Assembly: GCA_963804825.1 (NCBI GenBank)
Contig: CAWDRV010000004.1
Location: 271,278 to 335,277, forward strand
Direction: 5' to 3'
DNA length: 64,000 bases
DNA from: an uncultured Planctomycetia bacterium
GTDB taxonomy: Bacteria > Planctomycetota > Planctomycetia > Pirellulales > Thermoguttaceae
This document shows, in pieces, positions 24,259-62,054 of this stretch (positions are counted from its first letter, which is position 1; each line of letters starts with the position of its first letter). Made by a program: the position numbers and the translations under genes. The notes beneath the pieces were generated by a model, which made no database searches, was not told the origin of the DNA, and saw only the letters and a list, made by a program, of their open reading frames with translations.

Positions 24259-24796
24259 GAATTCGCCCTTCGTTCTGCGGGTCGGCCCGCGCCGGCTGGG
24301 TTGTCCAGGTGGCCACCCGGCACAACCGTCCGGACGATTCTGCTCCACCCGTTTCTATCCCAGCATGCCCGCCATTTTACCCTCGGCGATGGCGTTTACC
24401 AGCCAGCGGGCGTAACGGCGGCTGCAGGGAGACGGACGGCAATCACTGGCCGCCCCGGGCAAAGGCACGACCTTCTCCATGGGTCACCGGCTCGCACCGT
24501 GGAAAATTTTCCGCGGGGCGGGAATAATTTCGCCCGTTCGAGCGTCTTATAGATAAGGCCGCCGTGCTCGGGAAAATTTCGTGAACTTCTGTAGCATCGG
24601 CGGCGTCTATACGATATAATAGCGATAGTGCGGCCCTCGGCGGGCTGCCAGTTTGAGAGAAAGAGCCATGACTTCGATACGGCTAAGTCACAAACAGCGA
24701 AGATGGATGGGTACATTCGCCGCCCAAGCGGCGAATACGCTCCCGTCCTATCCATTGCGCGTTTGACACCGGCCGTACCTATTCCGAAGAATACCG

Positions 24797-24832
24797 AAAG
24801 CCCGGTGTCATAACGACATCGGGCTTTTTTTA
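24797..24832 (+). terminator. Rho-independent terminator (AAAGCCCGGTG...CATCGGGC + TTTTTTTATT)
   Basis: GC stem agcccg/cgggct followed by a run of 7 T. Lies about 150 nt upstream of the first tRNA of the array. Confidence 0.6.
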
Positions 24833-24985
24833 TTGGGTCGGTAGCTGAGATGCGGGCACCGACCGAAGGTTGGTCGGCGGCGGCCTGAAAAGCCGCAGAC
24901 GCGGATTCGAGCACCGCCCGACCCACTGCGTGAAACGTGCGCGCGAACCCCTTGCTTCAACTGCGTGGAAGGTGCGCGCTGAGAT

Positions 24986-25059
24986 GGCCTGTTCGTCTAT
25001 CGGTTCGAGGACACCGGCCCTTCAAGCCGGGAAGACGGGTTCGACTCCCGTACGGGCCG
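24986..25059 (+). tRNA. tRNA-Glu(UUC), non-canonical (C33)
   Basis: Acceptor ggcctgt/acgggcc. The D-arm TTCGTCTATCGG resembles bacterial tRNA-Glu. Anticodon stem ccggc/gccgg with loop CCTTCAA. T-arm acggg-TTCGACT-cccgt. Confidence 0.7.
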
Positions 25060-25066
25060 CTGTGGG

Positions 25067-25160
25067 CAGAACGTAGCGAAGCCTGGTTATCGCGCGGGCA
25101 CCGATGCGCAGCATTGGTCCGGGGACCAGGAGACCGGCGGTTCAAATCCGCCCGTTCTGA
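25067..25160 (+). tRNA. tRNA-like, 94 nt, Pro-type D-loop, hairpin repeat where anticodon arm should be (probable pseudo-tRNA)
   Basis: Acceptor cagaacg/cgttctg, T-arm ggcgg-TTCAAAT-ccgcc, D-loop AAGCCTGGTTAT. The interior carries GGGCACCGATGCGCAGCATTGGTCC (array hairpin repeat). No standard anticodon arm. Confidence 0.35.
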
Positions 25161-25168
25161 CTGGATGA

Positions 25169-25241
25169 CGGGATGTAGGGTAGCGGCGAACCCGTGTGTT
25201 CTGGGAACACAAGATCGCAGGTTCGAGTCCTGCCATCCCGA
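25169..25241 (+). tRNA. tRNA-Pro(UGG), non-canonical (C33)
   Basis: Acceptor cgggatg/catcccg. Anticodon stem tgtgt/acaca with loop TCTGGGA. T-arm gcagg-TTCGAGT-cctgc. Confidence 0.65.
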
Positions 25242-25267
25242 CCTGACGGACAACGACGTTGGCACAT

Positions 25268-25339
25268 GGTAGTCGAGGGCCGGTTGCCCAAACCCGGCTG
25301 ATAACCGAGTGGCGCTGAGTTCGACTCTCAGGGCTACCA
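25268..25339 (+). tRNA. tRNA-Ile(GAU) (short D-loop; possible indel)
   Basis: Acceptor ggtagtc/ggctacc. Anticodon loop CTGATAA. T-arm ctgag-TTCGACT-ctcag. The D-arm looks truncated. Confidence 0.6.
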
Positions 25340-25405
25340 CTGGAAAGTGAGGAGCATGACCATGAAGCAAACCCGATGGAAACGCATACGCCCGGCCTGC
25401 ATTTC

Positions 25406-25477
25406 GGGGTCGTGGTGTAACGGCAGCACTCCGGACTTTTAATCCGGTAGGTGAAGGTTCGAGTCCTTTCGGCCCCA
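25406..25477 (+). tRNA. tRNA-Lys(UUU)
   Basis: Acceptor ggggtcg/cggcccc. Anticodon stem ccgga/tccgg with loop CTTTTAA. T-arm gaagg-TTCGAGT-ccttt. Confidence 0.8.
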
Positions 25478-25487
25478 CTCGCCGTGA

Positions 25488-25576
25488 CGGCGCGTAGCTC
25501 AATGGTCAGAGCGGGCCTCTTATAAGGGTCAGGACCACCTGCGGTGGTGCCCAGGGTTCGACTCCCTCCGCGCCCA
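25488..25576 (+). tRNA. tRNA-like with long variable hairpin, anticodon loop CTTATAA (UAU?); anticodon and acceptor ambiguous
   Basis: Canonical D-arm TAGCTCAATGGTCAGAGC. Anticodon stem ggcct/gggtc needs two G-U pairs. Variable hairpin ACCACCTGCGGTGGT. T-loop TTCGACT. The 5' acceptor pairing is imperfect. Confidence 0.4.
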
Positions 25577-25602
25577 CTGCTGCGCGTAACGAAGCAGACG
25601 AC

Positions 25603-25675
25603 GGGACCAAGGTGCTAGCGGCAGCACAGCGGATTCTTAATCCGCCAGGTGAGGGTTCAAGTCCCTCTGGTCCCA
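25603..25675 (+). tRNA. tRNA-Lys(CUU)
   Basis: Acceptor gggacca/tggtccc. D-arm gtgc/gcac. Anticodon stem gcgga/tccgc with loop TTCTTAA. T-arm gaggg-TTCAAGT-ccctc. Confidence 0.8.
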
Positions 25676-25690
25676 CTGATGTGAGCACTG

Positions 25691-25790
25691 GTCCGGGCAC
25701 CGACGCGCAGCGTTGGTCGTGGCGAGGATACCGCACCCGTAATGCGGCGACGAGGGTTCGAGTCCGGGCACCGACGCGAAGCGTTGGTCT
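25691..25790 (+). pseudogene. Pseudo-tRNA: Thr(CGU)-like anticodon arm (loop CCCGTAA, C33) flanked by two copies of the hairpin repeat, T-arm broken
   Basis: A direct repeat GTCCGGGCACCGACGCG[C/A]AGCGTTGGTC sits at both ends. Anticodon stem ccgca/tgcgg. The sequence around GGTTCGAGTCC cannot form a 5-bp T-stem. Confidence 0.35.
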
Positions 25791-25827
25791 GGTGCTCCTG
25801 TTGTTTGACAATTCGGCACACCACGAC

Positions 25828-25917
25828 GCGCCCATGGGGCACCGTCGCGAAGCGATGGTCGCGGCAGCCTGCTGCCTTGCCATGGCAGAAGTGCGGGTTC
25901 GACTCCCGCTGGGCGCT
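25828..25917 (+). tRNA. tRNA-Gly(GCC) with expanded D-region containing the hairpin repeat
   Basis: Acceptor gcgccca/tgggcgc. Anticodon stem ctgcc/ggcag with loop TTGCCAT. T-arm gcggg-TTCGACT-cccgc. 34 nt lie between the acceptor and the anticodon arm, including GGGGCACCGTCGCGAAGCGATGGTC. Confidence 0.5.
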
Positions 25918-25925
25918 TTTCAGCG

Positions 25926-26000
25926 CAGGACGTAGGAAAGCCTGGTATTCCGCGTGCCCCGGGCAGCACGAGATCGCGGGTTCAAATCCCGCCGTCCTGA
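25926..26000 (+). tRNA. tRNA-Pro(CGG)-like, 8-nt anticodon loop CCCGGGCA / C33
   Basis: Acceptor caggacg/cgtcctg. D-loop AAGCCTGGTAT. Anticodon stem cgtgc/gcacg. T-arm gcggg-TTCAAAT-cccgc. Confidence 0.5.
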
Positions 26001-26007
26001 CTTTGAT

Positions 26008-26082
26008 TGCGGTGGGGCCTGTGTTGGCACGGGCGGGCGCTTGTTAAGCGTCATGTCGCAGGTTCGATTCCTGCCACCGCAG
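26008..26082 (+). tRNA. tRNA-Asn(GUU)
   Basis: Acceptor tgcggtg/caccgca. Anticodon stem ggcgc/gcgtc with loop TTGTTAA. Variable loop ATGTC. T-arm gcagg-TTCGATT-cctgc. Confidence 0.7.
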
Positions 26083-26096
26083 CCTGTTGAGAGAAC

Positions 26097-26218
26097 GGAA
26101 GGGCAAGCCGGACCACCGCTTCGCGGCGGTGCCCGCGATGGCAGCCGCCGGGCACCATGCGAAGCATGGTCAGCGGCCGAGCGATGAGCCTTGAGGGTTC
26201 GACTCCCTCTCCTTCCGC
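26097..26218 (+). tRNA. Ser-type tRNA-like element, 122 nt with two hairpin insertions (probable pseudo/unusual tRNA)
   Basis: Acceptor ggaaggg/tccttcc (Ser-like), T-arm gaggg-TTCGACT-ccctc. The interior contains CACCGCTTCGCGGCGGTG (UUCG hairpin) and GGGCACCATGCGAAGCATGGTC (array repeat). Confidence 0.3.
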
Positions 26219-26223
26219 CTGCT

Positions 26224-26312
26224 GTGCCCTTGGCCGGCCGGCAGAGGTGCCAGCCTTCCAAGCTGGCGCGACCAACCTTCGGTCGGTGCCCGGTTCGACT
26301 CCCACAGGGCAC
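26224..26312 (+). tRNA. tRNA-Gly(UCC)-like with reverse-orientation hairpin repeat in variable region, defective T-arm (pseudo)
   Basis: Acceptor gtgccct/agggcac. Anticodon stem ccagc/gctgg with loop CTTCCAA, followed by GCGCGACCAACCTTCGGTCGGTGCCC. Relative to the paralog at 27439 it lacks about 18 nt, so the T-stem cannot pair. Confidence 0.35.
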
Positions 26313-26327
26313 TCTCAGCGATGACGA

Positions 26328-26398
26328 TCGGGGATCAGCTAGTGGCAGGCTTCCTGGCTTTGAACCAGGCAACGGAGGTTCAACCCCTCCTCCCCGAG
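26328..26398 (+). tRNA. tRNA-Gln(UUG)
   Basis: Acceptor tcgggga/tccccga (U1-A72 as in bacterial Gln). Anticodon stem cctgg/ccagg with loop CTTTGAA. T-arm ggagg-TTCAACC-cctcc. Confidence 0.75.
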
Positions 26399-26435
26399 CT
26401 TGCAGCCGGCGAGCCGTGTCTCGTCACGCAAACGA

Positions 26436-26506
26436 TGCGGAGTCATCTAACGGTAGGATGAGACTCTCTGAAGGTCTTCATGTTGGTTCAACTCCAGCCT
26501 CCGCAG
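26436..26506 (+). tRNA. tRNA-Gln(CUG)
   Basis: Acceptor tgcggag/ctccgca. D-stem catc/gatg. Anticodon stem agact/ggtct with loop CTCTGAA. T-arm gttgg-TTCAACT-ccagc. Confidence 0.7.
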
Positions 26507-26515
26507 CTTGATAAC

Positions 26516-26601
26516 GGAAGCCATCCGGCCGGATGAGGAGCCTGTCTTGAAAACAGGTGGCGGCCCGACGCCGCTTGTGGGTTCGAGTCCCACGGCTTCC
26601 G
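26516..26601 (+). tRNA. tRNA-Ser(UGA)
   Basis: Acceptor ggaagcc/ggcttcc. Anticodon stem cctgt/acagg with loop CTTGAAA. Long variable arm TGGCGGCCCGACGCCGCT. T-arm gtggg-TTCGAGT-cccac. Confidence 0.75.
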
Positions 26602-26606
26602 CCTTT

Positions 26607-26677
26607 GGGGTCATGGTCCAACAGGACGACGCCAGCTCCGCACGCTGGAGATCCGGGTGCGACTCCCGGTGACTCCA
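26607..26677 (+). tRNA. tRNA-Ala(CGC), non-canonical (C33, T-loop TGCGACT), G3-U70 present
   Basis: Acceptor ggggtca/tgactcc gives G3-U70 and discriminator A. Anticodon stem ccagc/gctgg with loop TCCGCAC. T-arm ccggg-TGCGACT-cccgg. Confidence 0.65.
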
Positions 26678-26689
26678 CTGTAGAAACAT

Positions 26690-26761
26690 AGCCCCGTGGT
26701 CCAACGGCAACGACGCTTGGTCCACACCCAGGAAACGATGGTTCGACTCCATCCGGGGCTA
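26690..26761 (+). tRNA. tRNA-Val(CAC), non-canonical (C33)
   Basis: Acceptor agccccg/cggggct. D-arm GTCCAACGGCAACGAC. Anticodon stem cttgg/ccagg with loop TCCACAC. T-arm gatgg-TTCGACT-ccatc. Confidence 0.65.
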
Positions 26762-26765
26762 CTGC

Positions 26766-26839
26766 GGCTCGGTAGGCAACCGGCAGACCACCTTGGCTTA
26801 GAACCAGGGATGCTGTGGGTTCGACTCCCACCTGAGCCA
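26766..26839 (+). tRNA. tRNA with anticodon UAG (Leu) on a class-I body (short variable loop), non-canonical
   Basis: Acceptor ggctcgg/ctgagcc, discriminator A. Anticodon stem cttgg/ccagg with loop CTTAGAA. Variable loop GATGC. T-arm gtggg-TTCGACT-cccac. Confidence 0.55.
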
Positions 26840-26853
26840 CTGTGAACGACCCT

Positions 26854-26928
26854 GCCCTCGTGGAGCAGCCTGGAGTGCTCGCCTGCCTGTCACGCAGGAG
26901 ATCGCGGGTCCAAATCCCGTCGAGGGCG
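26854..26928 (+). tRNA. tRNA-Asp(GUC) (T-loop TCCAAAT, C54)
   Basis: Acceptor gccctcg/cgagggc, discriminator G. D-stem gagc/gctc. Anticodon stem cctgc/gcagg with loop CTGTCAC. T-arm gcggg-TCCAAAT-cccgt. Confidence 0.7.
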
Positions 26929-26942
26929 CTTTCAAGTATGAC

Positions 26943-27017
26943 GGCGCGGTACGCAAATCGGCAAAGCGGTCAAGCTCAAACCTTGGTGATCTGCGGGTTC
27001 GACTCCCGCCTGTGCCA
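26943..27017 (+). tRNA. tRNA with anticodon CAA (Leu) on a class-I body, non-canonical
   Basis: Acceptor ggcgcgg/ctgtgcc. D-arm CGCAAATCGGCAAAGCG. Anticodon stem tcaag/cttgg with loop CTCAAAC. Short variable loop. T-arm gcggg-TTCGACT-cccgc. Confidence 0.5.
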
Positions 27018-27028
27018 CTGGAAACCAT

Positions 27029-27112
27029 GCGTCAACTGGGCATCGGCGAGCCCAACTGCCCGTAAAACAGCCAGCCCGAAAGGCTATGCAGGTTCGACTC
27101 CTGCCCGGCGCA
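27029..27112 (+). tRNA. Class-II-like tRNA element, anticodon arm degenerate (loop CCCGTAAAA), acceptor mismatched (probable pseudo/chimera)
   Basis: D-arm GGGCATCGGCGAGCCC. Variable hairpin AGCCCGAAAGGCT. T-arm gcagg-TTCGACT-cctgc. The 5' gcgtcaa does not fully pair with the 3' ccggcgc. Confidence 0.3.
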
Positions 27113-27122
27113 CTGACAACAT

Positions 27123-27195
27123 GGCCCGTTCGTCTATCGGCCAAGGACACCGGCCCCTCACGCCGGAAAGGCGGGTTCAATTCCCGCACGGGCTG
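27123..27195 (+). tRNA. tRNA-Glu(CUC), non-canonical (C33)
   Basis: Paralog of 24986. Acceptor ggcccgt/acgggct. Anticodon stem ccggc/gccgg with loop CCCTCAC. T-arm gcggg-TTCAATT-cccgc. Confidence 0.65.
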
Positions 27196-27202
27196 CTGAC
27201 AT

Positions 27203-27284
27203 GACCAAGTGGCGCAACTGGTAGACGCGCGACGCTCAGAACGTCGTGCCGCAAGGCATGGGAGTTCGAATCTCCCCTTGGTCA
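27203..27284 (+). tRNA. tRNA-Leu(CAG), class II
   Basis: Acceptor gaccaag/cttggtc, discriminator A. D-arm GGCGCAACTGGTAGACGCG. Anticodon stem cgacg/cgtcg with loop CTCAGAA. Variable hairpin TGCCGCAAGGCAT. T-arm gggag-TTCGAAT-ctccc. Confidence 0.75.
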
Positions 27285-27295
27285 CTGAGGAATTG

Positions 27296-27362
27296 CAGGC
27301 GCGGCAGGTGCCCAACTGGCTCCCATAAGGCCGGTGCGCCCGGCTCGATACCGGGGCCTGCA
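27296..27362 (+). tRNA. Degenerate tRNA-like element, anticodon loop CCCATAA (CAU, C33)
   Basis: Acceptor tgcaggc/gcctgca. T-arm cccgg-CTCGATA-ccggg. The interior is only 38 nt, with a 4-bp anticodon stem ggct/ggcc. Confidence 0.3.
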
Positions 27363-27364
27363 AC

Positions 27365-27429
27365 TGCGGGTGGGCCAGTGCTCAGCCGGGCCCCATAAGC
27401 CTGGACCGCCGGGCGCAACACCCGGACCC
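27365..27429 (+). tRNA. Degenerate tRNA-like element, anticodon loop CCCATAA (CAU, C33), 1-72 mismatch
   Basis: T-arm ccggg-CGCAACA-cccgg. Acceptor tgcgggt/acccgcc has a T1xC72 mismatch. Anticodon stem gggc/gcct. Confidence 0.25.
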
Positions 27430-27438
27430 GCCACTTGC

Positions 27439-27530
27439 GACCGGGTACGCAAATTGGCATAGCGGCGCGACCAACCTTCGGTCGGTGCCCGAGAGCCTCG
27501 TGCCTGTGGGTTCGACTCCCACCTCGGTCA
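27439..27530 (+). tRNA. Class-II-like tRNA with reverse-orientation hairpin repeat occupying the anticodon-arm position (loop AACCTTC)
   Basis: Acceptor gaccggg/ctcggtc. D-arm CGCAAATTGGCATAGCG. The anticodon-position segment CGACC-AACCTTC-GGTCG is part of GCGCGACCAACCTTCGGTCGGTGCCC. Variable arm GAGAGCCTCGTGCC. T-arm gtggg-TTCGACT-cccac. Confidence 0.4.
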
Positions 27531-27544
27531 CTGACAAGGAAAAC

Positions 27545-27617
27545 GATCCCGTGGTCCAACGGCGAAGACGCCTGGGTGACAACCAGGAAAGCGATGGTTC
27601 GACTCCATCCGGGATCA
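27545..27617 (+). tRNA. tRNA-Val(GAC)
   Basis: Acceptor gatcccg/cgggatc. D-arm GTCCAACGGCGAAGAC. Anticodon stem cctgg/ccagg with loop GTGACAA. T-arm gatgg-TTCGACT-ccatc. Confidence 0.7.
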
Positions 27618-27711
27618 TGTTGGAAAAACGGTCTGTAGGTGTTTCGGCAGCACACCTCCTCGGTAAAGAGGAAGACCCGGTTCATCTCCGGGACGGACCT
27701 CTTGATGATGC

Positions 27712-27782
27712 GGGCCGCTGGTCCAACGGGAAGACGCTTGGTTTGCACCCAGGCAATCGGGGTTCGATTCCCCGGCGGTCCA
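27712..27782 (+). tRNA. tRNA-Ala(UGC)
   Basis: Acceptor gggccgc/gcggtcc with G3-U70, discriminator A. Anticodon stem cttgg/ccagg with loop TTTGCAC. T-arm cgggg-TTCGATT-ccccg. Confidence 0.8.
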
Positions 27783-27791
27783 CTGAAATAC

Positions 27792-27879
27792 GGAAGGTAG
27801 CCGGATACCGGGTTGCCGGGCCGCCCCGCTAAGGCGGTTCTCCCCTGTGGAGATGAGGGTTCAACTCCCTTGCCTTCCG
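27792..27879 (+). tRNA. tRNA-Ser(GCU), class II, non-canonical (C33)
   Basis: Acceptor ggaaggt/gccttcc, discriminator G. Anticodon stem ccgcc/ggcgg with loop CCGCTAA. Variable hairpin TCTCC-CCTGT-GGAGA. T-arm gaggg-TTCAACT-ccctt. Confidence 0.65.
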
Positions 27880-27898
27880 CTTGGTGTGTCGGGTTGAC

Positions 27899-27969
27899 GC
27901 CCCGATAGTGAAACGGAAATCATGCCTCGCTTCTAACGAGGCGATCCAGGTTCAACTCCTGGTCGGGGT
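27899..27969 (+). tRNA. tRNA-Arg(UCU)
   Basis: Acceptor gccccga/tcggggt. Anticodon stem cctcg/cgagg with loop CTTCTAA. T-arm ccagg-TTCAACT-cctgg. Confidence 0.75.
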
Positions 27970-27990
27970 GCTGGCGGAGACAGTTATATA

Positions 27991-28066
27991 TGGTGTCCGT
28001 GGTGTAGCGGTTCCTGCACGCCTGGCTGTGAACCAGGAGGTAGGGGTTCGATTCCCCTCGGATACC
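27991..28066 (+). tRNA. tRNA-His(GUG) with encoded G-1 and C73
   Basis: G at -1, acceptor gtgtccg/cggatac, discriminator C. Anticodon stem cctgg/ccagg with loop CTGTGAA. T-arm agggg-TTCGATT-cccct. Confidence 0.8.
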
Positions 28067-28096
28067 CCTGGGGAGAATTGTGGGAAGGAGAACGTT

Positions 28097-28693
28097 ATGG
28101 TCACCAAGGTACTCCAGCGGCCGACGCTGGTGCTGAACCGCAACTGGCAGCCGGTGAACGTCGCCACCGTGACGCGGGCACTGGTGCTGCTGTGGAACGA
28201 GTCTGCGCGCGTCGTGGACCCGGCCGACTACCAGCTCTACACCTGGGCCGACTGGGCCAAGCTGCGGCCGGGCAACGGCGAGGACTGCATCCAGGCGGTG
28301 AGGTTCAAGCTGCGGGTGCCGGAAGTGGTCGCACTGAGCGGCTACGATCGGCTGCCGACGGCCCACGTGACCTTCAGCCGCCGGAACATTTTCAAGCGGG
28401 ACCACTACACCTGCCAGTACTGCGGCGCCCAGCCGGGCAGCGATGAACTGACGCTGGACCACGTCCTGCCGCGTTCCCAGGGTGGCGTGTCGGGTTGGGG
28501 GAACTGCGTGCTGGCCTGTGTGGCCTGCAACAAGCGGAAGGCCGATCGGACACCGGAGCAAGCACGGATGCACCTGCGCCGTAAGCCGGTCCGGCCGACG
28601 TGGAAGCCGCTCTATGCGGATCACGAGGTGCGGATCGAGAGCTGGTCGAAGTTCGTCAGCGAAGCGTACTGGAACGTAAGGCTTGAGACCTGA
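28097..28693 (+). CDS. HNH endonuclease
   Basis: ATG at 28097 with RBS GGAAGGAGAA. HNH motif CQYCGAQPGSDELTLDHVLPRSQGG...NCVLACVACNKRK. 198 aa. Embedded in the tRNA array; the larger listed ORF 27881..28693 overlaps tRNAs and is spurious. Confidence 0.8.
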   Translation: MVTKVLQRPTLVLNRNWQPVNVATVTRALVLLWNESARVVDPADYQLYTWADWAKLRPGNGEDCIQAVRFKLRVPEVVALSGYDRLPTAHVTFSRRNIFKRDHYTCQYCGAQPGSDELTLDHVLPRSQGGVSGWGNCVLACVACNKRKADRTPEQARMHLRRKPVRPTWKPLYADHEVRIESWSKFVSEAYWNVRLET

Positions 28694-28736
28694 GACCTGA
28701 GACCTGAGACCTGAGGCTTGAGGCTTGAGTGGTGAG
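28681..28736. repeat. Tandem heptad repeats (GCTTGAG/ACCTGAG x8)
   Basis: gcttgag acctgag acctgag acctgag acctgag gcttgag gcttgag tggtgag overlaps the HNH stop codon. An inverted complement array lies at 29117-29196. Confidence 0.7.
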
Positions 28737-28740
28737 GAAG

Positions 28741-29121
28741 TTAGGCACTTCGGCGAAGAGACCGCACTAGACCTGCCAGGACCTTTGCGGTCTCGTCCGC
28801 CTGTTGTGCGACTTTCTGGGCGGCATCGTCCGGCACGTATCCTAGGCGATGAGCGACCGTAAGCTGGTACTGGACCTCACGCGATGAACCAAACGCCATG
28901 TCGAGAAAACGAATGTAGTCGGCCTGCGAGTGCCTGGCGCAGCCCTCGACGATATTCGAGGCAATGGAGATTGCGGCACGACGCAATTGGATGGTCAGTC
29001 CGAACTGCTCCTGCCTAGGAAATGTCTTGGTAATTGAATAGATCGACAGAACAAGATTGTCGGCTAACTCGAACGCACGGAGTTTTCGATGGTCTCGCAT
29101 CGCTGTATTGTGCCACTTCAA
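28741..29121 (-). CDS. Four-helix-bundle protein (23S rRNA intervening-sequence protein family, TIGR02436-like)
   Basis: MRDHRKLRAFELADNLVLSIYSITKTFPRQEQFGLTIQLRRAAISIASNIVEGCARHSQADYIRFLDMAFGSSREVQYQL matches the conserved family pattern (FGLTSQLRRAA.SI..NIAEG). The start may be the Met at 29100 rather than 29121. Confidence 0.7.
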   Translation of the reverse strand: MKWHNTAMRDHRKLRAFELADNLVLSIYSITKTFPRQEQFGLTIQLRRAAISIASNIVEGCARHSQADYIRFLDMAFGSSREVQYQLTVAHRLGYVPDDAAQKVAQQADETAKVLAGLVRSLRRSA

Positions 29122-29196
29122 GCCTCACAACTCAAGCCTCAGGCCCCAGGCCTCAAGCCTAAGGCCCCAGGCCTCAAGCCTAAGGCCTCAGGCCTA
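29117..29196. repeat. Tandem heptad/21-bp repeats (CTCAAGC/CTAAGGC/CCCAGGC), inverted complement of the 28681-28736 array
   Basis: caagcctcacaactcaagcctcaggccccaggcctcaagcctaaggccccaggcctcaagcctaaggcctcaggcct. Together with the left array it can form a long imperfect stem around the 4HB gene. Confidence 0.65.
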
Positions 29197-29200
29197 TTAC

Positions 29201-29270
29201 AGGAGTGTCCTCCTGGGAGAGGAAGCGGCCTCCAAAGCCGCTGCACGGGGTTCGAATCCTCGCGCTCCTG
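29201..29270 (+). tRNA. tRNA-Trp(CCA)
   Basis: Acceptor aggagtg/cgctcct, discriminator G. Anticodon stem gcggc/gccgc with loop CTCCAAA. T-arm cgggg-TTCGAAT-cctcg. Confidence 0.75.
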
Positions 29271-29273
29271 CTT

Positions 29274-29345
29274 GCCGACGTGGCCGAAAGGCAAGGCGGC
29301 GGTCCTGTAAACCGCATGATGCTGGTTCGAATCCAGTCGTCGGCT
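29274..29345 (+). tRNA. tRNA-Thr(UGU), non-canonical (C33)
   Basis: Acceptor gccgacg/cgtcggc. D-arm GCCGAAAGGCAAGGC. Anticodon stem gcggt/accgc with loop CCTGTAA. T-arm gctgg-TTCGAAT-ccagt. Confidence 0.6.
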
Positions 29346-29356
29346 TTGGTACGTTT

Positions 29357-29428
29357 GTCCCGATGGTGTAGCGGATCGCACGGGGCTCTCCTAAGGCCCT
29401 GGCCCTGGTTCGACTCCAGGTCGGGACA
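29357..29428 (+). tRNA. tRNA-Arg(CCU)
   Basis: Acceptor gtcccga/tcgggac. D-arm GTGTAGCGGATCGCAC. Anticodon stem gggct/ggccc with loop CTCCTAA. T-arm cctgg-TTCGACT-ccagg. Confidence 0.75.
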
Positions 29429-29434
29429 CTATTC

Positions 29435-29506
29435 GTCTCGATGGTGTAGCGGATCGCATAGGACCCTCCGAAGGTCCAGGTCCAGGTTCGACTCCTGGTC
29501 GAGACA
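29435..29506 (+). tRNA. tRNA-Arg(CCG)
   Basis: Acceptor gtctcga/tcgagac. Anticodon stem ggacc/ggtcc with loop CTCCGAA. T-arm ccagg-TTCGACT-cctgg. Confidence 0.75.
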
Positions 29507-29509
29507 TTT

Positions 29510-29582
29510 GCCCTGCGAGTGTGCCGGATTAGCACGGCAGACTACGAATCTGCAAGACGGGGTTCGATTCCTCGGCGGGGCG
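29510..29582 (+). tRNA. tRNA-Arg(ACG)
   Basis: Acceptor gccctgc/gcggggc, discriminator G. Anticodon stem gcaga/tctgc with loop CTACGAA. T-arm cgggg-TTCGATT-cctcg. Confidence 0.75.
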
Positions 29583-29593
29583 CTGAAACGAAT

Positions 29594-29666
29594 GTCCTCG
29601 GAGTGTGCCGGATAAGCACGCGACCGTGCGAAGGTCGTAGACCAGGTCCAATTCCTGGCGAGGACG
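29594..29666 (+). tRNA. Arg-type tRNA body with anticodon arm CGACC-GTGCGAA-GGTCG (GCG; stem identical to the hairpin-repeat core), T-loop TCCAATT
   Basis: Paralog of 29510 (same D-arm GTGTGCCGGATAAGCAC). Acceptor gtcctcg/cgaggac. Purine at position 32, anticodon GCG. Confidence 0.45.
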
Positions 29667-29690
29667 CTTGACAATTCGGCGCTGGAGCCA
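29667..29690. repeat. Direct repeat DR1 (CTTGACAATTCGGCGCTGGAGCCA): promoter-like TTGACA plus a copy of the first 13 nt of tRNA-Cys
   Basis: 21 of 24 positions identical to 30734-30757, which is the true 5' end of tRNA-Cys. The two repeats flank a 1.04-kb lower-GC insert. Confidence 0.6.
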
Positions 29691-29859
29691 CAGCATAGCA
29701 TTTGGGCGGCGGTCGCCCATCGCAGATGTAAGCGGGCCAACTGGCGCACCCCACCACAATTCGGTGCGACAGCGCATCGTGTCGGGCCATAGCCCGCCCG
29801 AGAATGCGCTAATCTCACTGTGGATAACAAGGGATTCCCAGTCAACGCGGAGAAATGCA

Positions 29860-30738
29860 ATGGCCATCAATTACCAACGAGCGAGTGAACTGCTACTAGA
29901 GACCCAACAAGCAATGCAGTGCGACGAAAGCACGCGTCTGTGCGAAGCGGTGGGCAAGTTGCTGGATGCGCGTCTATGTGGGGCTGATCCTTGGGACTGG
30001 CGCTACAACACCACGCATTGGGCATTGGATGTGGTCAATGTCTGTAAGGAGATCGGGTACAGCGTTGCATGGATGCGAGCGTTGGCTCGCTACTGCTCGG
30101 AGTCGGAGGAGCAGGATCGGCAATCCGTCGAGGGCCTCGTGTCGTATTATGCGGACAACGCTGCAACGAGGATCAGTTCGTGCCGTGACAAACTCGCGCT
30201 CCTTGCATGGTCGTATTATTGCCCATTCAACCCTGACAAGAAGGACGACGTCTTGAGTTTTGAGCAGGTTCACGCCCGATTGACCACCCCGCTTAGGTTC
30301 GGCCTCCACTTCAACGGTCACAATGAGTTCCTCGTCGAACTGAACAAGCTCCTGGGATCAGGCTTTGAAAGGGCTATTGCCTACCGACACAAAAAGGTAC
30401 ATCGCATGGAACCGCGCGTTATGATGCGTAAGCCCGAGGTCCCCGACCAACGATGTTACATGTTTGCGGTAACGACAGAAAAGGACGTTCGCGGATTCGA
30501 CGATAAGCTCAAGAAGATGTACCCAGATGATGGGTTTCGAGCAGAAGTCCGACAGGGGTGCTTCCTCGATGGCGTGCTTTTTGACCGGCGAGCGCCCGAG
30601 GAATTGCTCTGGCACTTCGAGGATTTCGACGGATTCACTTATCCTTGTTGGAAGAGTCTATGTGATGCGACCGCGGGCTCGTGCGAGATACTGTTACGTC
30701 GTGAACCAATGCTTTCAAAGGCTGGCCAAGGCACTTGA
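29860..30738 (+). CDS. Hypothetical protein (cargo of insertion within tRNA array; lower GC)
   Basis: ATG at 29860 with RBS GGAGAAA. 292 aa, no recognisable motifs. About 50% GC against about 65% for the flanks. Confidence 0.5.
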   Translation: MAINYQRASELLLETQQAMQCDESTRLCEAVGKLLDARLCGADPWDWRYNTTHWALDVVNVCKEIGYSVAWMRALARYCSESEEQDRQSVEGLVSYYADNAATRISSCRDKLALLAWSYYCPFNPDKKDDVLSFEQVHARLTTPLRFGLHFNGHNEFLVELNKLLGSGFERAIAYRHKKVHRMEPRVMMRKPEVPDQRCYMFAVTTEKDVRGFDDKLKKMYPDDGFRAEVRQGCFLDGVLFDRRAPEELLWHFEDFDGFTYPCWKSLCDATAGSCEILLRREPMLSKAGQGT

Positions 30739-30757
30739 CAACGTGGCGCTGGAGCCA
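30734..30757. repeat. Direct repeat DR2 (CTTGACAACGTGGCGCTGGAGCCA), overlaps 5' end of tRNA-Cys
   Basis: Matches DR1 at 29667-29690. Confidence 0.6.
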
Positions 30758-30816
30758 GACGGCACGGCGGCTGCCTGCAAAGCAGCTTCAAGTGGGTTCG
30801 ACTCCCACCGGCGCCT
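30745..30816 (+). tRNA. tRNA-Cys(GCA)
   Basis: Acceptor ggcgctg/cggcgcc, discriminator U. D-arm GCCAGACGGCACGGC. Anticodon stem gctgc/gcagc with loop CTGCAAA. T-arm gtggg-TTCGACT-cccac. Confidence 0.8.
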
Positions 30817-30927
30817 TTTTGGAAGCAATGATACGGCCGGGCCAACGGCGCAGCGCCGCCCTGTCCTCCAGCGAGGCGGTCGGCGACGTGCGTTCCGTAC
30901 ATGGGTTCTGACCGATGGTCGTGTCAA

Positions 30928-31000
30928 GCGAGGTTAGCTCAGTGGATAGAGCACCAGACCAATAATCTGGCTGTCGCGGGTTCGACTCCCGTACCAACAC
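30928..31000 (+). pseudogene. Pseudo-tRNA (canonical D-arm TAGCTCAGTGGATAGAGC, loop CCAATAA, 3' acceptor does not pair with 5' end)
   Basis: T-arm gcggg-TTCGACT-cccgt is followed by accaaca, but the 5' acceptor is gcgaggt. Anticodon stem ccaga/tctgg with A34 and C33. Confidence 0.35.
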
Positions 31001-31447
31001 CGCAGGCTAAACCCCTGCTCCAAACGGCCCGCGACCAACGCGGGGCGTTGGTGCCCGGCGGGCCAACGTGTGATCGGCCACCGGCGGCCGAGCGACCGAC
31101 GGCGCCGAGGACTCTGGGCATACTGCCTGTAAGGCAGCGCCCGGAGGAATCGACGCCCAAGGGAGCACACGGTTGTCCGGTGGCAGCACGGCCGAGTGCC
31201 ATGTAGTGCGTGGATACCGCTTCCGCCGGCCTCCGGCAAGCGGCAACGGATGCCTGGCGACTCGCCCCAGGGCTTTGCCCCTTCGGCGACCAGCCCGGCG
31301 GAAACTGCCGCACCGCCGCAGGCTATGCGGATGCTCAAACGACACTCCGCAGTTGTCCGTGTGATCGCCGCTGGCTCCGCCGCCCGACGGCTTTATGAAA
31401 CGCAGACAAGAGCGGCCCACGAAAGGCCGCAGGAAGGAAGGTGAAGG

Positions 31448-61487: not shown

Positions 61488-61500
61488 TGAGGGCAGGGGG

Positions 61501-61582
61501 AAAACCGGGACAGGTCCGGTATTGGCAAAATAGATAATGTAATAAACATCCCAATTATACAATACCGGACCTGTCCCGGTTT
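61501..61582. repeat. REP doublet (two inverted copies of the same REP separated by 34-bp AT-rich spacer)
   Basis: AAACCGGGACAGGTCCGGTATTG at 61501-61523 and CAATACCGGACCTGTCCCGGTTTT at 61558-61582. Confidence 0.7.
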
Positions 61583-61637
61583 TATTCCTTCCGCCCTCCG
61601 CCTTCCTCCTTCCTCCTTCCTCCTGTATGCTGAACGA

Positions 61638-62054
61638 ATGACCCCAACACCCCCCACGGGACCCGATTTTTCCCGCGGCGACGGCCTGCTGCCCGCCATT
61701 GCCCAGGATGCCCAGACGGGCGAGGTCCTGATGCTGGCTTACATGAACGCCGAAAGCTACGCCGAGACCGTGGCGACCGGCCGGGCCGTCTACTACAGCC
61801 GCAGCCGGAAGAAACTCTGGCGGAAAGGCGAGCAGAGCGGCAACGTCCAACGGGTCCGCGCCATTTACCTGGACTGCGACCTGGACACGATCCTGCTCCG
61901 CGTCGAGCAAGTGGGGGGGGCCGCCTGCCACGAAGGTTATAAGAGCTGCTTCTTCCGCCAGGTCGGCCCGGACGGGCTCGACGTGATCGGCCAGCGCGTG
62001 TTCGACCCGGCGGAAGTTTATGGAAAGAAGTCCATGGAAAGAAGTGAACCATGA
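61638..62054 (+). CDS. hisI: Phosphoribosyl-AMP cyclohydrolase
   Basis: [24 protein letters not shown]...[18 protein letters not shown]...[27 protein letters not shown]. Confidence 0.85.

Follow-up and report, generated by a model that had tools for sequence, protein, structure and literature searches.

The nature and origin of the intervening sequences (IVS) of rRNA genes, and the role of their conserved open reading frame (ORF), have been open questions since about 1990-93. ORF-bearing IVS in helix 45 of 23S rRNA are known from Coxiella burnetii and Leptospira (Ralph & McClelland 1993; Afseth 1995). They encode proteins of the same family, PF05635, as the gene studied here. In the Coxiella IVS, RNase III cuts a terminal stem of 28 bp, and tandem GACAGAT heptamers in variable number stand ahead of the ORF (Warrier 2016, PMC4990558). 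Its protein appears not to be made in vivo, though the IVS is maintained (PMC4990558). According to the same paper (PMC4990558), the ORF-less IVS in rRNA genes of Salmonella, Yersinia, Campylobacter and alphaproteobacteria are extended stem-loops without a gene.

In this study, we compare with these elements a hairpin cassette that lies in a tRNA gene array of the window, i.e. the whole stretch of 64,000 nucleotides that was analysed. Overall, the comparison is based on 240-odd loci. The features of the locus are the following, the hairpin and its arrays being given without a strand.

27993..28068, + strand: tRNA-His(GTG), upstream neighbour in the tRNA array (ARAGORN; Rfam tRNA, 60.2 bits)
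28097..28693, + strand: HNH endonuclease gene, co-directional with the tRNAs (PF14279, E 2.7e-13; PF01844, E 9.4e-13)
28679..29181: whole hairpin cassette, in which 28679-28737 pairs with 29123-29181
28681..28736: left heptad array, 8 units, GCTTGAG/ACCTGAG/TGGTGAG on the + strand; in gene sense the 3' arm, of CT-N5 type
28741..29100, - strand: gene of a four-helix-bundle protein, PF05635/TIGR02436, 119 aa; alternative TTG start at 29121
29101..29135, - strand: short spacer from the 5' arm to the ATG, with weak promoter-like boxes by eye
29117..29196: right heptad array, 11 units, CTCAAGC/CTCAGGC/CCCAGGC/CTAAGGC on the + strand; in gene sense the 5' arm, of N5-AG type
29201..29271, + strand: tRNA-Trp(CCA), downstream neighbour, starting 5 nt past the right array (ARAGORN)

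The gene array comprises 35 tRNAs, all on the + strand (ARAGORN), and the cassette lies inside it with the HNH gene on one side and tRNA-Trp on the other. Other neighbours of the cassette are a weak HEPN-like ORF and a Band-7 gene. Rfam revealed no rRNA match within 24500-31200, which places the cassette outside rRNA helices 9, 25 and 45; on the cassette itself it gave sub-threshold miRNA-like noise on the repeats and nothing else. The initial annotation had described a left array of eight tandem heptads running into the HNH stop, and this is what we find: exactly eight units occupy 28681-28736, and the stop codon TGA (28691-28693) lies inside the second of them. The tail of the HNH gene, its last four codons (RLET) and the stop, is encoded by the left array; those HNH orthologues in other Pirellulales tRNA arrays that no heptad array abuts end in ...YWNVELE(K) before the stop. 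In practical terms, the arrays rewrite the 3' ends of adjoining genes, as the HNH tail at this locus exemplifies. In draft genomes published earlier, moreover, contig ends were associated with heptad repeat regions (PMC4679880).

Concerning the enclosed gene, its product matches PF05635 (E 1.8e-33, 115.4 bits against a cut-off of 33.8) and TIGR02436 (E 8.3e-34, 116.1 bits against a cut-off of 24). The original assignment of a gene at 28741-29121 to the 23S-IVS protein family is right as to the family and probably needs correction at the 5' end. The start codon is likely the ATG at 29100, giving 119 aa, and not the TTG at 29121, because nearly all homologues have that length and M1 is invariant. 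No Shine-Dalgarno sequence was found ahead of ATG 29100. The family motif GxxRxxxSxxxNxxE (PMC3936711) is present in the window protein as GLTIQLRRAAISIASNIVEG, and R40, R41, S48, N49, E52 and G53 are invariant across 35 relatives. By sequence homology, the nearest solved structure is Xcc0516 (2gsc, E 3.2e-26), and 2rld is homologous as well. Xcc0516 was deposited as five chains; the title of its report, as cited in PMC3936711, names five four-helix bundles. PADLOC gave no defence-system match for the protein and tblastn no match against a phage collection. There is no transposase domain in the cassette, and neither a catalytic nor a recombinase domain is present in the protein, a helical bundle of 119 aa.

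Weak matches were obtained to the Avd proteins of diversity-generating retroelements (bAvd PF22296, 25.4 bits; NF033474, 28.6 bits; PHROG 'Avd protein of DGR', E 8e-9). They would suit a gene that encodes such an accessory protein, with the repeats as part of a template or target. This reading is already contradicted, since both curated cut-offs (40 and 80 bits, respectively) are missed and neither a reverse transcriptase nor a template/variable repeat pair is found nearby, and we hold it to be extremely improbable.

On the + strand, the left array reads GCTTGAG, four times ACCTGAG, twice GCTTGAG, and TGGTGAG; in gene sense these are CTCAAGC/CTCAGGT units, i.e. CT-N5. The right array (29117-29196) reads CTTCAAGC, CTCACAA, CTCAAGC, CTCAGGC, CCCAGGC, CTCAAGC, CTAAGGC, CCCAGGC, CTCAAGC, CTAAGGC and CTCAGGC, and its gene-sense units are GCTTGAG, GCCTGAG, GCCTGGG and GCCTTAG. 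About nine heptads had been proposed here; the array is confirmed, and its 11 units show the count to have been slightly low. TRF reported 9.3 copies at 29131-29195 with a 21-nt superperiod and 95% matches. The pattern GCTTGAGNNNTGAGNNNTGAG, with one mismatch allowed, occurs five times, always within the two arrays, as against 0.00 occurrences expected from 100 shuffles. A CRISPR array is ruled out by the period of 7, the head-to-tail units without spacers and the two inverted blocks. The arrays had further been claimed to be mutually reverse-complementary and able to form a long imperfect stem, and the data agree: the arms at 28679-28737 and 29123-29181 are 59 nt each and 83% complementary in DNA terms, giving a stem of about 59 bp on either strand. 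When the cassette region is folded as RNA, the arms pair on both strands, a lack of complementarity being seen on neither. The + strand gives an MFE of -233 kcal/mol (z -6.7) and the minus, gene-sense strand -247.7 (z -7.8), with a stem of about 57 bp that is nearly continuous when G:U pairs are included. A consensus scan of 28600-29300 called no intrinsic terminator at either array, its sole call being an internal 5-bp stem at 29087-29102.

This anatomy is conserved across the gene family, and its two arms covary. The genome sample comprised 77 loci with usable flanks, namely the window and relatives of 62-98% identity from Planctomycetota, Hydrogenedentota, Zixibacteria, Verrucomicrobiota, Kiritimatiellae and others. 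The upstream flank was aligned to the reverse complement of the downstream flank, with the 99th percentile of shuffles as threshold; this was preferred to strict self-periodicity detection, which missed degenerate arrays. The flanks were significantly complementary in 65 of the 77 loci (median alignment 15.5 for cognate versus 8.5 for non-cognate flanks), and their lag-7 autocorrelation was 0.69/0.68 versus about 0.40 at neighbouring lags. The arms sit tightly on the ORF, the 3' arm beginning +1 to +12 past the stop in most loci and the arrays reaching up to the start codon, and an arm usually counts 4-5 heptads. The heptads themselves vary by locus (GCTTGAG, GCTGTAG, GCTGGAG, GCTTCAG, GCTTTAG, GCCAGAG and others), yet the arms vary together: 89.1% of cells are paired versus 70.1% in shuffles (0/500), the covariation score is 0.451 versus 0.135 (0/500), and double changes are seen in six of seven pairs; slid controls yield 20-47%. 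AG at heptad positions 6-7 is invariant (94-95%), and positions 3-5 vary freely among close relatives though protein identity stays at 70% or above. Distant plasmid homologues (29-44% identity) have heptad arrays in eight of eight cases, and the Azospirillum homologue among them is located within a 23S rRNA gene. Three divergent subfamilies share one cassette rule, the 5' arm being (N5-AG)n and the 3' arm (CT-N5)n, and PF05635 is the only cargo ever found enclosed. A 121-123-aa ORF in the loci L010 and L040, considered as another cargo, turned out to be placed between two adjacent hairpins, outside both, and gave no Pfam match.

Gene conversion between the inverted repeats, and not selection for pairing, could be what keeps the arms complementary. 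A plain stem, moreover, does not explain the period of 7 and the invariant AG/CT every seven bases. Such recurring invariant positions are consistent with arrays that are binding sites of the encoded protein, which is pentameric in solved relatives, for autoregulation or for a cellular role on folded RNA, the inverted arrangement being a by-product. Arms of usually 4-5 heptads, the five chains of Xcc0516 with its five four-helix bundles (per the title in PMC3936711) and the adjacency of arrays and start codon point the same way. The freedom of positions 3-5 at 70% protein identity or more, however, makes a tight protein-sequence code unlikely, ORF-less hairpins (described below) survive without the gene, and in Coxiella the IVS is still kept while its protein appears not to be made (PMC4990558). 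On balance, we regard protein binding as an unlikely reason for the arrays.

For comparison with true IVS, we assembled 81 IVS in helix 45 of 23S rRNA that carry the family, 80 of them metagenomic and one from Azospirillum; the metagenomic relatives of the 23S-located Azospirillum protein were helix-45 IVS in 80 of 80 cases. All 72 distinct arm pairs are complementary, with a lag-7 autocorrelation of 0.71 versus 0.33-0.39, and the arms are built of (NNRTCAG)n/(CTGANNN)n, which is the N5-AG/CT-N5 rule again. The likeness to 23S IVS suggested at the outset thus extends to the repeats, as the terminal stems of true IVS are inverted heptad arrays too. The repeat-built hairpin is the general architecture of the PF05635 family, true rRNA IVS included. 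As to the features by which an IVS may be recognised, the window cassette has the extended terminal stem of complementary borders around an insert, and it has the N5-AG/CT-N5 heptad stem that we derived here from 73 true IVS; it has neither the insertion in rRNA nor the ORF in host sense, the gene being in sense to the host rRNA in all 81 IVS. That the repeats are functionless, slippage-prone low-complexity DNA, complementary by accident or through a recent inverted duplication, would agree with their unstable copy number and with the ease with which tandem repeats arise. It is very improbable all the same: three divergent subfamilies, across phyla and contexts, show the architecture in 65/77, 8/8 and 72/72 loci with different, covarying heptads, none is expected by chance in the window, and the comparative data already contradict it. 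Within the literature searched on PF05635/TIGR02436, heptamer repeats, S23 protein and STRR, we found no paper describing the general heptad architecture; only the Coxiella heptamers had been noted previously, and the general rule appears new.

The gene in the window runs antisense to each of the 35 tRNAs, and among tRNA-array cassettes the gene is antisense to the tRNAs in 29 loci versus sense in one. Strand preference was assessed by counting mismatch types in the aligned arms, RNAduplex on 150-nt flanks being too noisy. In the window arms, seven mismatches are G:U-compatible on the gene-sense strand versus one on the other, so that the transcript of the gene itself forms a better stem than the tRNA precursor does. 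Mismatches in the genome sample also favour G:U on gene-sense RNA (86 versus 56, p 0.015; a modest difference, with loci that are non-independent), and so do those of true IVS (91 versus 63). Because the gene is antisense and the G:U pattern favours the gene-sense strand, the case for a role in the RNA of the gene itself is stronger than that for excision from the tRNA precursor. The consensus promoter/terminator scan of 28600-29300 gave no convincing promoter. By eye, the minus strand has TTGAGT (29135-29130), 17 nt, CACAAT (29112-29107), 6 nt and the ATG; these boxes score 8 of 12, and the consensus scan did not call them. GACAAT/CATAAT boxes 6-8 nt ahead of the ATG also occur in the sampled loci L002, L003, L012, L013 and L020. 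Judged by its sequence, TTGAGT/CACAAT may be a weak, promoter-like candidate; were it real, it would yield a leaderless mRNA without the 5' arm.

The cassette occupies multiple sites, is present, absent or inverted at a given site, and changes its copy number rapidly. It was found at at least six sites in Pirellulales tRNA arrays, and the site between the HNH 3' end and tRNA-Trp occurs empty, with an ORF-less heptad hairpin, filled, and filled in inverted orientation. Relatives of the cassette are also found in cas operons and ordinary intergenic DNA, and the portability that the initial annotation proposed is supported by these sites and states. ORF-less heptad hairpins fill tRNA-tRNA spacers in related genomes and are frequent near cassettes; none was found in the tRNA spacers of the 64-kb window. 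A unit of tRNA-Cys and cassette is duplicated as a whole. No target-site duplication is definable, as empty and filled sites are too diverged. Among relatives with proteins 96-100% identical, the left array has 8, 5 and 6 units in three of them, and the right array has 11, 6 and about 13 units in three close relatives.

Several insertion sites, four states at one of them, and ORF-less hairpins common near cassettes and between tRNAs are also what speaks for arrays that act in DNA. They would then be terminal inverted repeats or hairpin recombination sites of a mobile element, the ORF-less hairpins MITE/REPIN-like non-autonomous derivatives, and the protein or a host enzyme would move, invert or maintain the element by recognising its N5-AG heptads. 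The invariant AG/CT and C2, which suggest sequence-specific recognition beyond pairing, PF05635 as the sole cargo, and the kinship of the family to Avd, a nucleic-acid-handling partner of reverse transcriptase, add to this. We nevertheless give action in DNA, which is compatible with the RNA model, a rather low probability. The 119-aa bundle is devoid of catalytic and recombinase domains, and a transposase is found neither in the cassette nor next to it; no target-site duplication could be delimited; duplication of the tRNA-Cys and cassette unit resembles segmental duplication and not transposition; and the bias for G:U over A.C points towards pairing in RNA and away from DNA.

The explanation that we consider probable is an IVS-type selfish gene cassette whose host is a tRNA array and not an rRNA gene, with the heptad stem as RNase III substrate. 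Excision by RNase III, which leaves the precursor pieces unligated, has been demonstrated for the Coxiella IVS, and by analogy the stem of the window cassette would be cut as well. As the inverted repeat reads alike on both strands, any transcript crossing the cassette, from either direction, would fold into the double-stranded stem with the gene in its loop. RNase III acting inside the stem, as in the Coxiella helix-45 IVS, would cut the insert of about 0.5 kb from the host transcript and would give the gene's own RNA defined, base-paired ends. Excision would render an insertion harmless in transcripts that are already processed, such as rRNA and tRNA arrays. Arms of tandem heptads could expand, contract or slip in register without loss of pairing, and as recombination substrates they could lead to inversion, exchange or reduction of the cassette to an ORF-less hairpin. 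Cleavage by RNase III, the strand of the relevant RNA, the reader of the invariant AG/CT and the role of the protein are matters of inference.

A broader and more tentative idea, which we think possible but would not bet on, is that PF05635 genes and N5-AG/CT-N5 hairpins belong together as a single class of mobile hairpin cassettes, both ancient and widespread. ORF-bearing 23S IVS would be its rRNA-resident subset, and ORF-less hairpins, perhaps with part of the cyanobacterial heptanucleotide repeats, its non-autonomous derivatives; the Avd-like four-helix-bundle protein, encoded by the element, might recognise the heptad duplex and promote spread or maintenance, like RAYT/REPIN with entirely different chemistry. 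ORF-bearing IVS are one habitat of a far wider cassette, found also in tRNA arrays, cas operons and ordinary intergenic DNA. Its architecture is strict (inverted heptad arrays with an invariant AG/CT, their middle positions covarying), it has derivatives that are hairpins without a gene, and its turnover can be seen at single sites. What was loosely conceived as a selfish element flanked by inverted repeats thereby acquires a specific, testable architecture.

REP/REPIN sequences and their RAYT genes likewise consist of a small gene between inverted short repeats and many gene-less hairpin derivatives in intergenic DNA. RAYTs are HUH tyrosine transposases of known chemistry. The cassette resembles them in its single small gene, its inverted short-repeat flanks and its gene-less hairpin derivatives; it differs in that its four-helix-bundle protein has no recognisable catalytic site and its repeats are tandem heptads, not single palindromes. 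The Avd proteins of diversity-generating retroelements have a distantly related helical-bundle fold, the window protein staying below the Avd cut-offs. STRR are 7-nt units repeated in tandem in the intergenic DNA of heterocystous cyanobacteria. In cyanobacteria, PF05635 genes are flanked by heptad arrays (GTGACAG, CTAAAAG, GGAAAAG), which resemble STRR as tandem, intergenic 7-nt repeats. STRR are treated in the fingerprinting literature (PMC5088731), and no link to the PF05635 family or to an inverted arrangement was found in the literature searched. ORF-less heptad hairpins between tRNAs of related genomes look like counterparts of ORF-less rRNA IVS, both being gene-less stem-loops in stable-RNA operons. 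From ORF-bearing IVS, the window cassette differs in its host site, a tRNA array and not an rRNA helix, in the orientation of its gene, antisense to the host transcript against sense in all 81 IVS, in its stem of 59 bp versus a median of 33, and in its heptad type, GCYKKAG versus NNRTCAG or GACAGAT. It shares with them the gene inside terminal inverted repeats, a long stem of AG-ending tandem heptads, heptad numbers that differ between strains, and its size class (about 500 nt, against a median of 468 nt for true IVS and 428 nt for the Coxiella IVS).

The window's tRNA array comprises 35 genes (24835-30816), all on the + strand. Inside it lies a cassette consisting of a minus-strand four-helix-bundle gene between inverted arrays of heptads, with the following features:

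27993-28068, + strand: tRNA-His, upstream neighbour of the HNH gene
28097-28693, + strand: HNH endonuclease gene (PF14279/PF01844 profile match)
28681-28736: left array of eight tandem heptads (GCTTGAG, four ACCTGAG, two GCTTGAG, TGGTGAG)
28741-29100, - strand: PF05635/TIGR02436 gene, 119 aa, ending four bases past the left array
29117-29196: right array of eleven heptads, reverse complement of the left set, beginning seventeen bases upstream of the ATG

The final HNH codons run into the left array, and tRNA-Trp starts five bases past the right array. TRF, a repeat finder and a search by pattern each recovered both arrays, for which the chance expectation is nil. The initial annotation had counted eight heptads on the left and about nine, in reverse complement, on the right; the right array has eleven, the rest stands. 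It had also assigned the gene to the protein family of 23S rRNA intervening sequences (IVS), and the protein clearly belongs to that family (PF05635, E 1.8e-33; TIGR02436, E 8.3e-34), its nearest solved structure being Xcc0516 (2gsc). The likely gene start is not the TTG at 29121, as annotated, but the ATG at 29100, because nearly all homologues have 119 aa and begin with MRDHRKL.

Folding confirmed the long imperfect stem proposed for the two arrays. The arms (28679-28737 and 29123-29181, 59 nt each) are 83% complementary. The + strand RNA folds at -233 kcal/mol (z -6.7), the arrays pairing with many single-mismatch interruptions, whereas the minus-strand, gene-sense RNA reaches -247.7 kcal/mol (z -7.8) with a nearly unbroken stem of 57 bp. 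The minus strand folds better because seven positions at which the arms do not match form G:U in the gene-sense RNA but A.C in the opposite one; a single position behaves the other way round.

This heptad-flanked architecture is general and not a local oddity of the window. Scanning one genome per species yielded 80 loci with relatives 62-98% identical, from Planctomycetota, Hydrogenedentota, Zixibacteria, Verrucomicrobiota, Kiritimatiellae and others. On reading of the flanks, nearly all have heptads upstream and their reverse complement downstream. In gene sense, the array before the gene (5' arm) reads (N5-AG)n and the one after it (3' arm) (CT-N5)n. Quantification was restricted to the 77 loci with usable flanks. 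In 65 of these, the upstream flank matched the reverse-complemented downstream flank beyond the 99th percentile of shuffles, with a median score of 15.5 for cognate and 8.5 for non-cognate flanks. Autocorrelation at lag 7 was 0.69 upstream and 0.68 downstream, as compared to about 0.40 at lags 4-6 and 8-10. The 3' arm usually begins 1-12 nt past the stop codon, and a gap of 8-30 nt usually separates the end of the 5' arm from the ATG.

The heptads themselves vary among loci (GCTTGAG, GCTGTAG, GCTGGAG, GCTTCAG, GCTTTAG, GCCAGAG, TCTTGAG), and the 3' arm is the complement of whichever heptad the 5' arm carries. At the orthologous tRNA-Cys site, for example, Stieleria has TCTTGAG/CTCAAGA and strain SH139 TCTTTAG/CTAAAGA. 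When consensus heptads were aligned and compared with 500 shuffles, paired cells amounted to 89.1% (70.1% in shuffles) and the covariation score to 0.451 (0.135), values that no shuffle reached. Changes on both sides occurred at six of the seven pairs, and pairing was only 20-47% in a control with the partner slid by 1-3 columns. Conserved positions are AG at 6-7 (94-95%) and C at 2 (79%). The comparison covers three subfamilies, namely relatives centred on Pirellulales, plasmid copies from cyanobacteria, and IVS of helix 45, and since loci of one sample have common ancestry, their counts are not independent events.

All eight plasmid homologues, from cyanobacteria, Azospirillum and Gemmatirosa and merely 29-44% identical, bear heptad arrays (GTGACAG, CTAAAAG, GGAAAAG, AGGCAGA and others), each writable in an AG-ending register. 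Two of the eight lie between cas6 and cas4, in agreement with earlier reports of the family inside cas loci (PMC3936711; PMC10910872). In these two, on plasmids of Pseudanabaena (L082; L-numbers denote comparison loci) and Anabaena sp. 90 (L085), the gene has the orientation of its cas neighbours, and its arrays reach a great length (at least 16 CTAAAAG and more than 12 GTGACAG units, respectively). L082 has arrays of the same polarity on both sides of the gene, the inverted partner being a hairpin without ORF farther upstream.

The homologue from Azospirillum lipoferum (plasmid AZO_p2), an ORF without annotation within a 23S rRNA gene (Rfam RF02541), belongs to a genuine IVS in helix 45. Its terminal stem pairs GAGGACG GATGACA GAGGACG GAGGACA with CCGTCCT CTGTCTT CTGTCAT CCGTCTT. 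With this protein as probe, a metagenome scan gave 80 more loci, all in 23S rRNA at the identical junction, their ORFs running in the direction of the rRNA. Both junctions were defined in 73 (median length 468 nt). All 72 distinct arm pairs were complementary beyond shuffles, with a lag-7 autocorrelation of 0.71 versus 0.33-0.39 and the formula 5' (NNRTCAG)n, 3' (CTGANNN)n. The likeness to 23S IVS stems put forward initially is thus upheld: the window cassette has the architecture of classical ORF-bearing IVS, heptad rule included. In the Azospirillum IVS (L084, 638; GACGGATGACAGAGG), as in several metagenome IVS, the in-frame ATG lies within the 5' array, so that the protein's N-terminus would be heptad-encoded. 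Another IVS (L101, 522 nt) has its 5' array and leader duplicated internally.

The G:U bias toward the gene-sense strand extends beyond the window: 86 versus 56 over the genome loci (p 0.015), about 30 versus 7 within tRNA-array loci and, comparably modest, 91 versus 63 in true IVS, whose relevant RNA is known to be the sense one. This suggests that the gene's own transcript bears both arms. A promoter scan found no consensus promoter for the gene; the sole promoter-like box, TTGAGT-17-CACAAT, lies 6 nt upstream of the ATG, and an mRNA made from it would be leaderless and lack the 5' arm.

At 29 of the genome loci, the window included, the cassette is part of a Pirellulales tRNA array and its gene runs opposite to all the tRNAs; L012 (sense) and L068 (mixed) are exceptions. 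The cassette sites in these arrays are:

beside tRNA-Trp: window, L001-L003, L011, L029
beside tRNA-Cys: 16 loci
between Gln and Asn: L069
beside Arg-GCG: L006, L019
5' of the HNH gene: L013, L015
beside Gly: L036

The site between the HNH 3' end and tRNA-Trp occurs in four states:

empty, with an ordinary GC hairpin: L069, L015
ORF-less heptad hairpin with a 31-nt loop: L013
filled, antisense: window, L001, L002, L003, L011, L089
filled, opposite orientation: L012

Between L003 and L012, the flanks are 97% and 90% identical, the 402-nt interior is inverted (86% identical) and the breakpoints fall in the arrays. In L015 (about ten), L012, L003, L013 and L069, spacers between tRNAs are occupied, to within 4-15 nt, by heptad hairpins that lack an ORF. 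In the same loci, extra heptad-flanked segments of ~400 nt encode PF05635 paralogues that are more distant and whose heptads are of other types; no cargo besides PF05635 turned up. The closely related MAGs L003 (3629-3706) and L012 (2821-2893, 4486-4580) have ORF-less hairpins of another type (TTTTCAG/TGTTCAG versus CTGAAAA/CTGAACA) besides GCTTGAG-type ones in the same tRNA array, and differ in heptad type in the orthologous spacer past tRNA-Trp.

Three relatives with 96-100% identical proteins and nearly identical unique flanks have 8/5/6 heptads in the left and 11/6/about 13 in the right array. Where an array abuts the HNH gene, the ancestral C-terminus ...YWNVELE(K)* has given way to RLET* (window) or RLELRPEA* (L001), owing to the array. 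The HNH gene (198 aa) is a conserved, co-directional resident of Pirellulales tRNA arrays, found also in L001, L003, L006, L011, L012, L013, L015, L069 and L089, usually between tRNA-His and tRNA-Trp, and 60-97% identical with or without an adjoining cassette. Its HNH domain matches IscB/Cas9-type models; the N-terminal part is LVLNRNWQP. In Novipirellula herctigrandis (L010/L017), tRNA-Cys and cassette are duplicated together, the upstream flanks of the two copies being identical and the distance between them 7 kb, and Novipirellula sp. SH528 (L023) has a tandem Cys-cassette-Cys. Duplication as a unit points to segmental duplication as the way in which the cassette spread within the array.

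L001 (CAWDSU010000008.1), from a MAG labelled 'uncultured Methanoregulaceae archaeon', carries a bacterial tRNA array with HNH gene (97%) and cassette (98%) like the window's; the contig probably belongs to a planctomycete and was mis-binned. The same may hold for L005, L009, L055 and L064, which bear the labels Anaerosomatales, Trueperaceae, Actinomycetes and Akkermansia.

Elsewhere in the window's array, several tRNAs either exceed the usual length, at 89-95 nt (Phe, Ile, Gly, Val), or received odd anticodon calls (24835-24926, 25067-25161, 25488-25577, 26224-26314, 27439-27531). Four long spacers (25677-25845, 26085-26223, 27019-27122, 27286-27438) have T-arm-like GGTTCGA motifs and strong folds with no tRNA called, and Rfam tRNAs at 26607-26677 and 30932-30995 are absent from the ARAGORN calls. 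A co-directional 292-aa ORF (29860-30738) between tRNA-Arg(GCG) and tRNA-Cys, where related genomes have a cassette just before tRNA-Cys, has as sole match a sub-threshold HEPN family (Cthe_2314-like; 25.5 bits, cut-off 27.1). At 61490-61625, just upstream of an ORF (61638-62054), a perfect 24-nt inverted repeat (AAAACCGGGACAGGTCCGGTATTG / CAATACCGGACCTGTCCCGGTTTT) with an AT-rich loop of about 40 nt is preceded by GAGGGCAGGGGGA, and five heptads rich in CT (TCCTTCC/GCCCTCC) come after it; the structure may represent a heptad hairpin that has degenerated and taken up an insertion.

Because the inverted repeat is identical on either strand, every RNA that runs across the cassette would read 5'-(N5AG)n ... 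(CUN5)n-3' and form the same stem. In Coxiella, RNase III cuts the 28-bp terminal stem of the IVS, which has three or two tandem GACAGAT heptamers before the ORF, depending on the strain, and the cut removes the insert from the rRNA precursor; such removal is also stated for Leptospira and Salmonella (PMC4990558). By analogy, the heptad stem would be an RNase III substrate and the cassette removable from any host RNA, which would explain why it persists in rRNA genes, in tRNA arrays and in operons. The tandem build of the arms would make pairing tolerant of slippage and could be the substrate of the observed inversion and exchange events. A plain stem accounts for neither the invariant AG/CT nor the 7-base period, a gap that specific reading of the sequence, by the encoded protein or some other factor, could fill.

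Among known systems, a DGR Avd protein was rejected (scores under both cut-offs, no reverse transcriptase nearby), as were a CRISPR array for the element and an intrinsic terminator for its arrays; no transposase was seen in it. A gene with hairpin derivatives functionally resembles RAYT/REPIN. The full texts searched, with subscription papers mostly outside their coverage, gave no description of a general inverted-heptad rule with invariant AG, of arm covariation, of ORF-less heptad hairpins or of tRNA-array residence. Inverted repeats around the IVS ORF have reportedly been known since 1993. Heptamers in the Coxiella IVS have been known since 2016 (PMC4990558). Apparently new here is the general architecture, a more interesting result than the window cassette, which shares structural features with rRNA IVS but differs from them in location and orientation.
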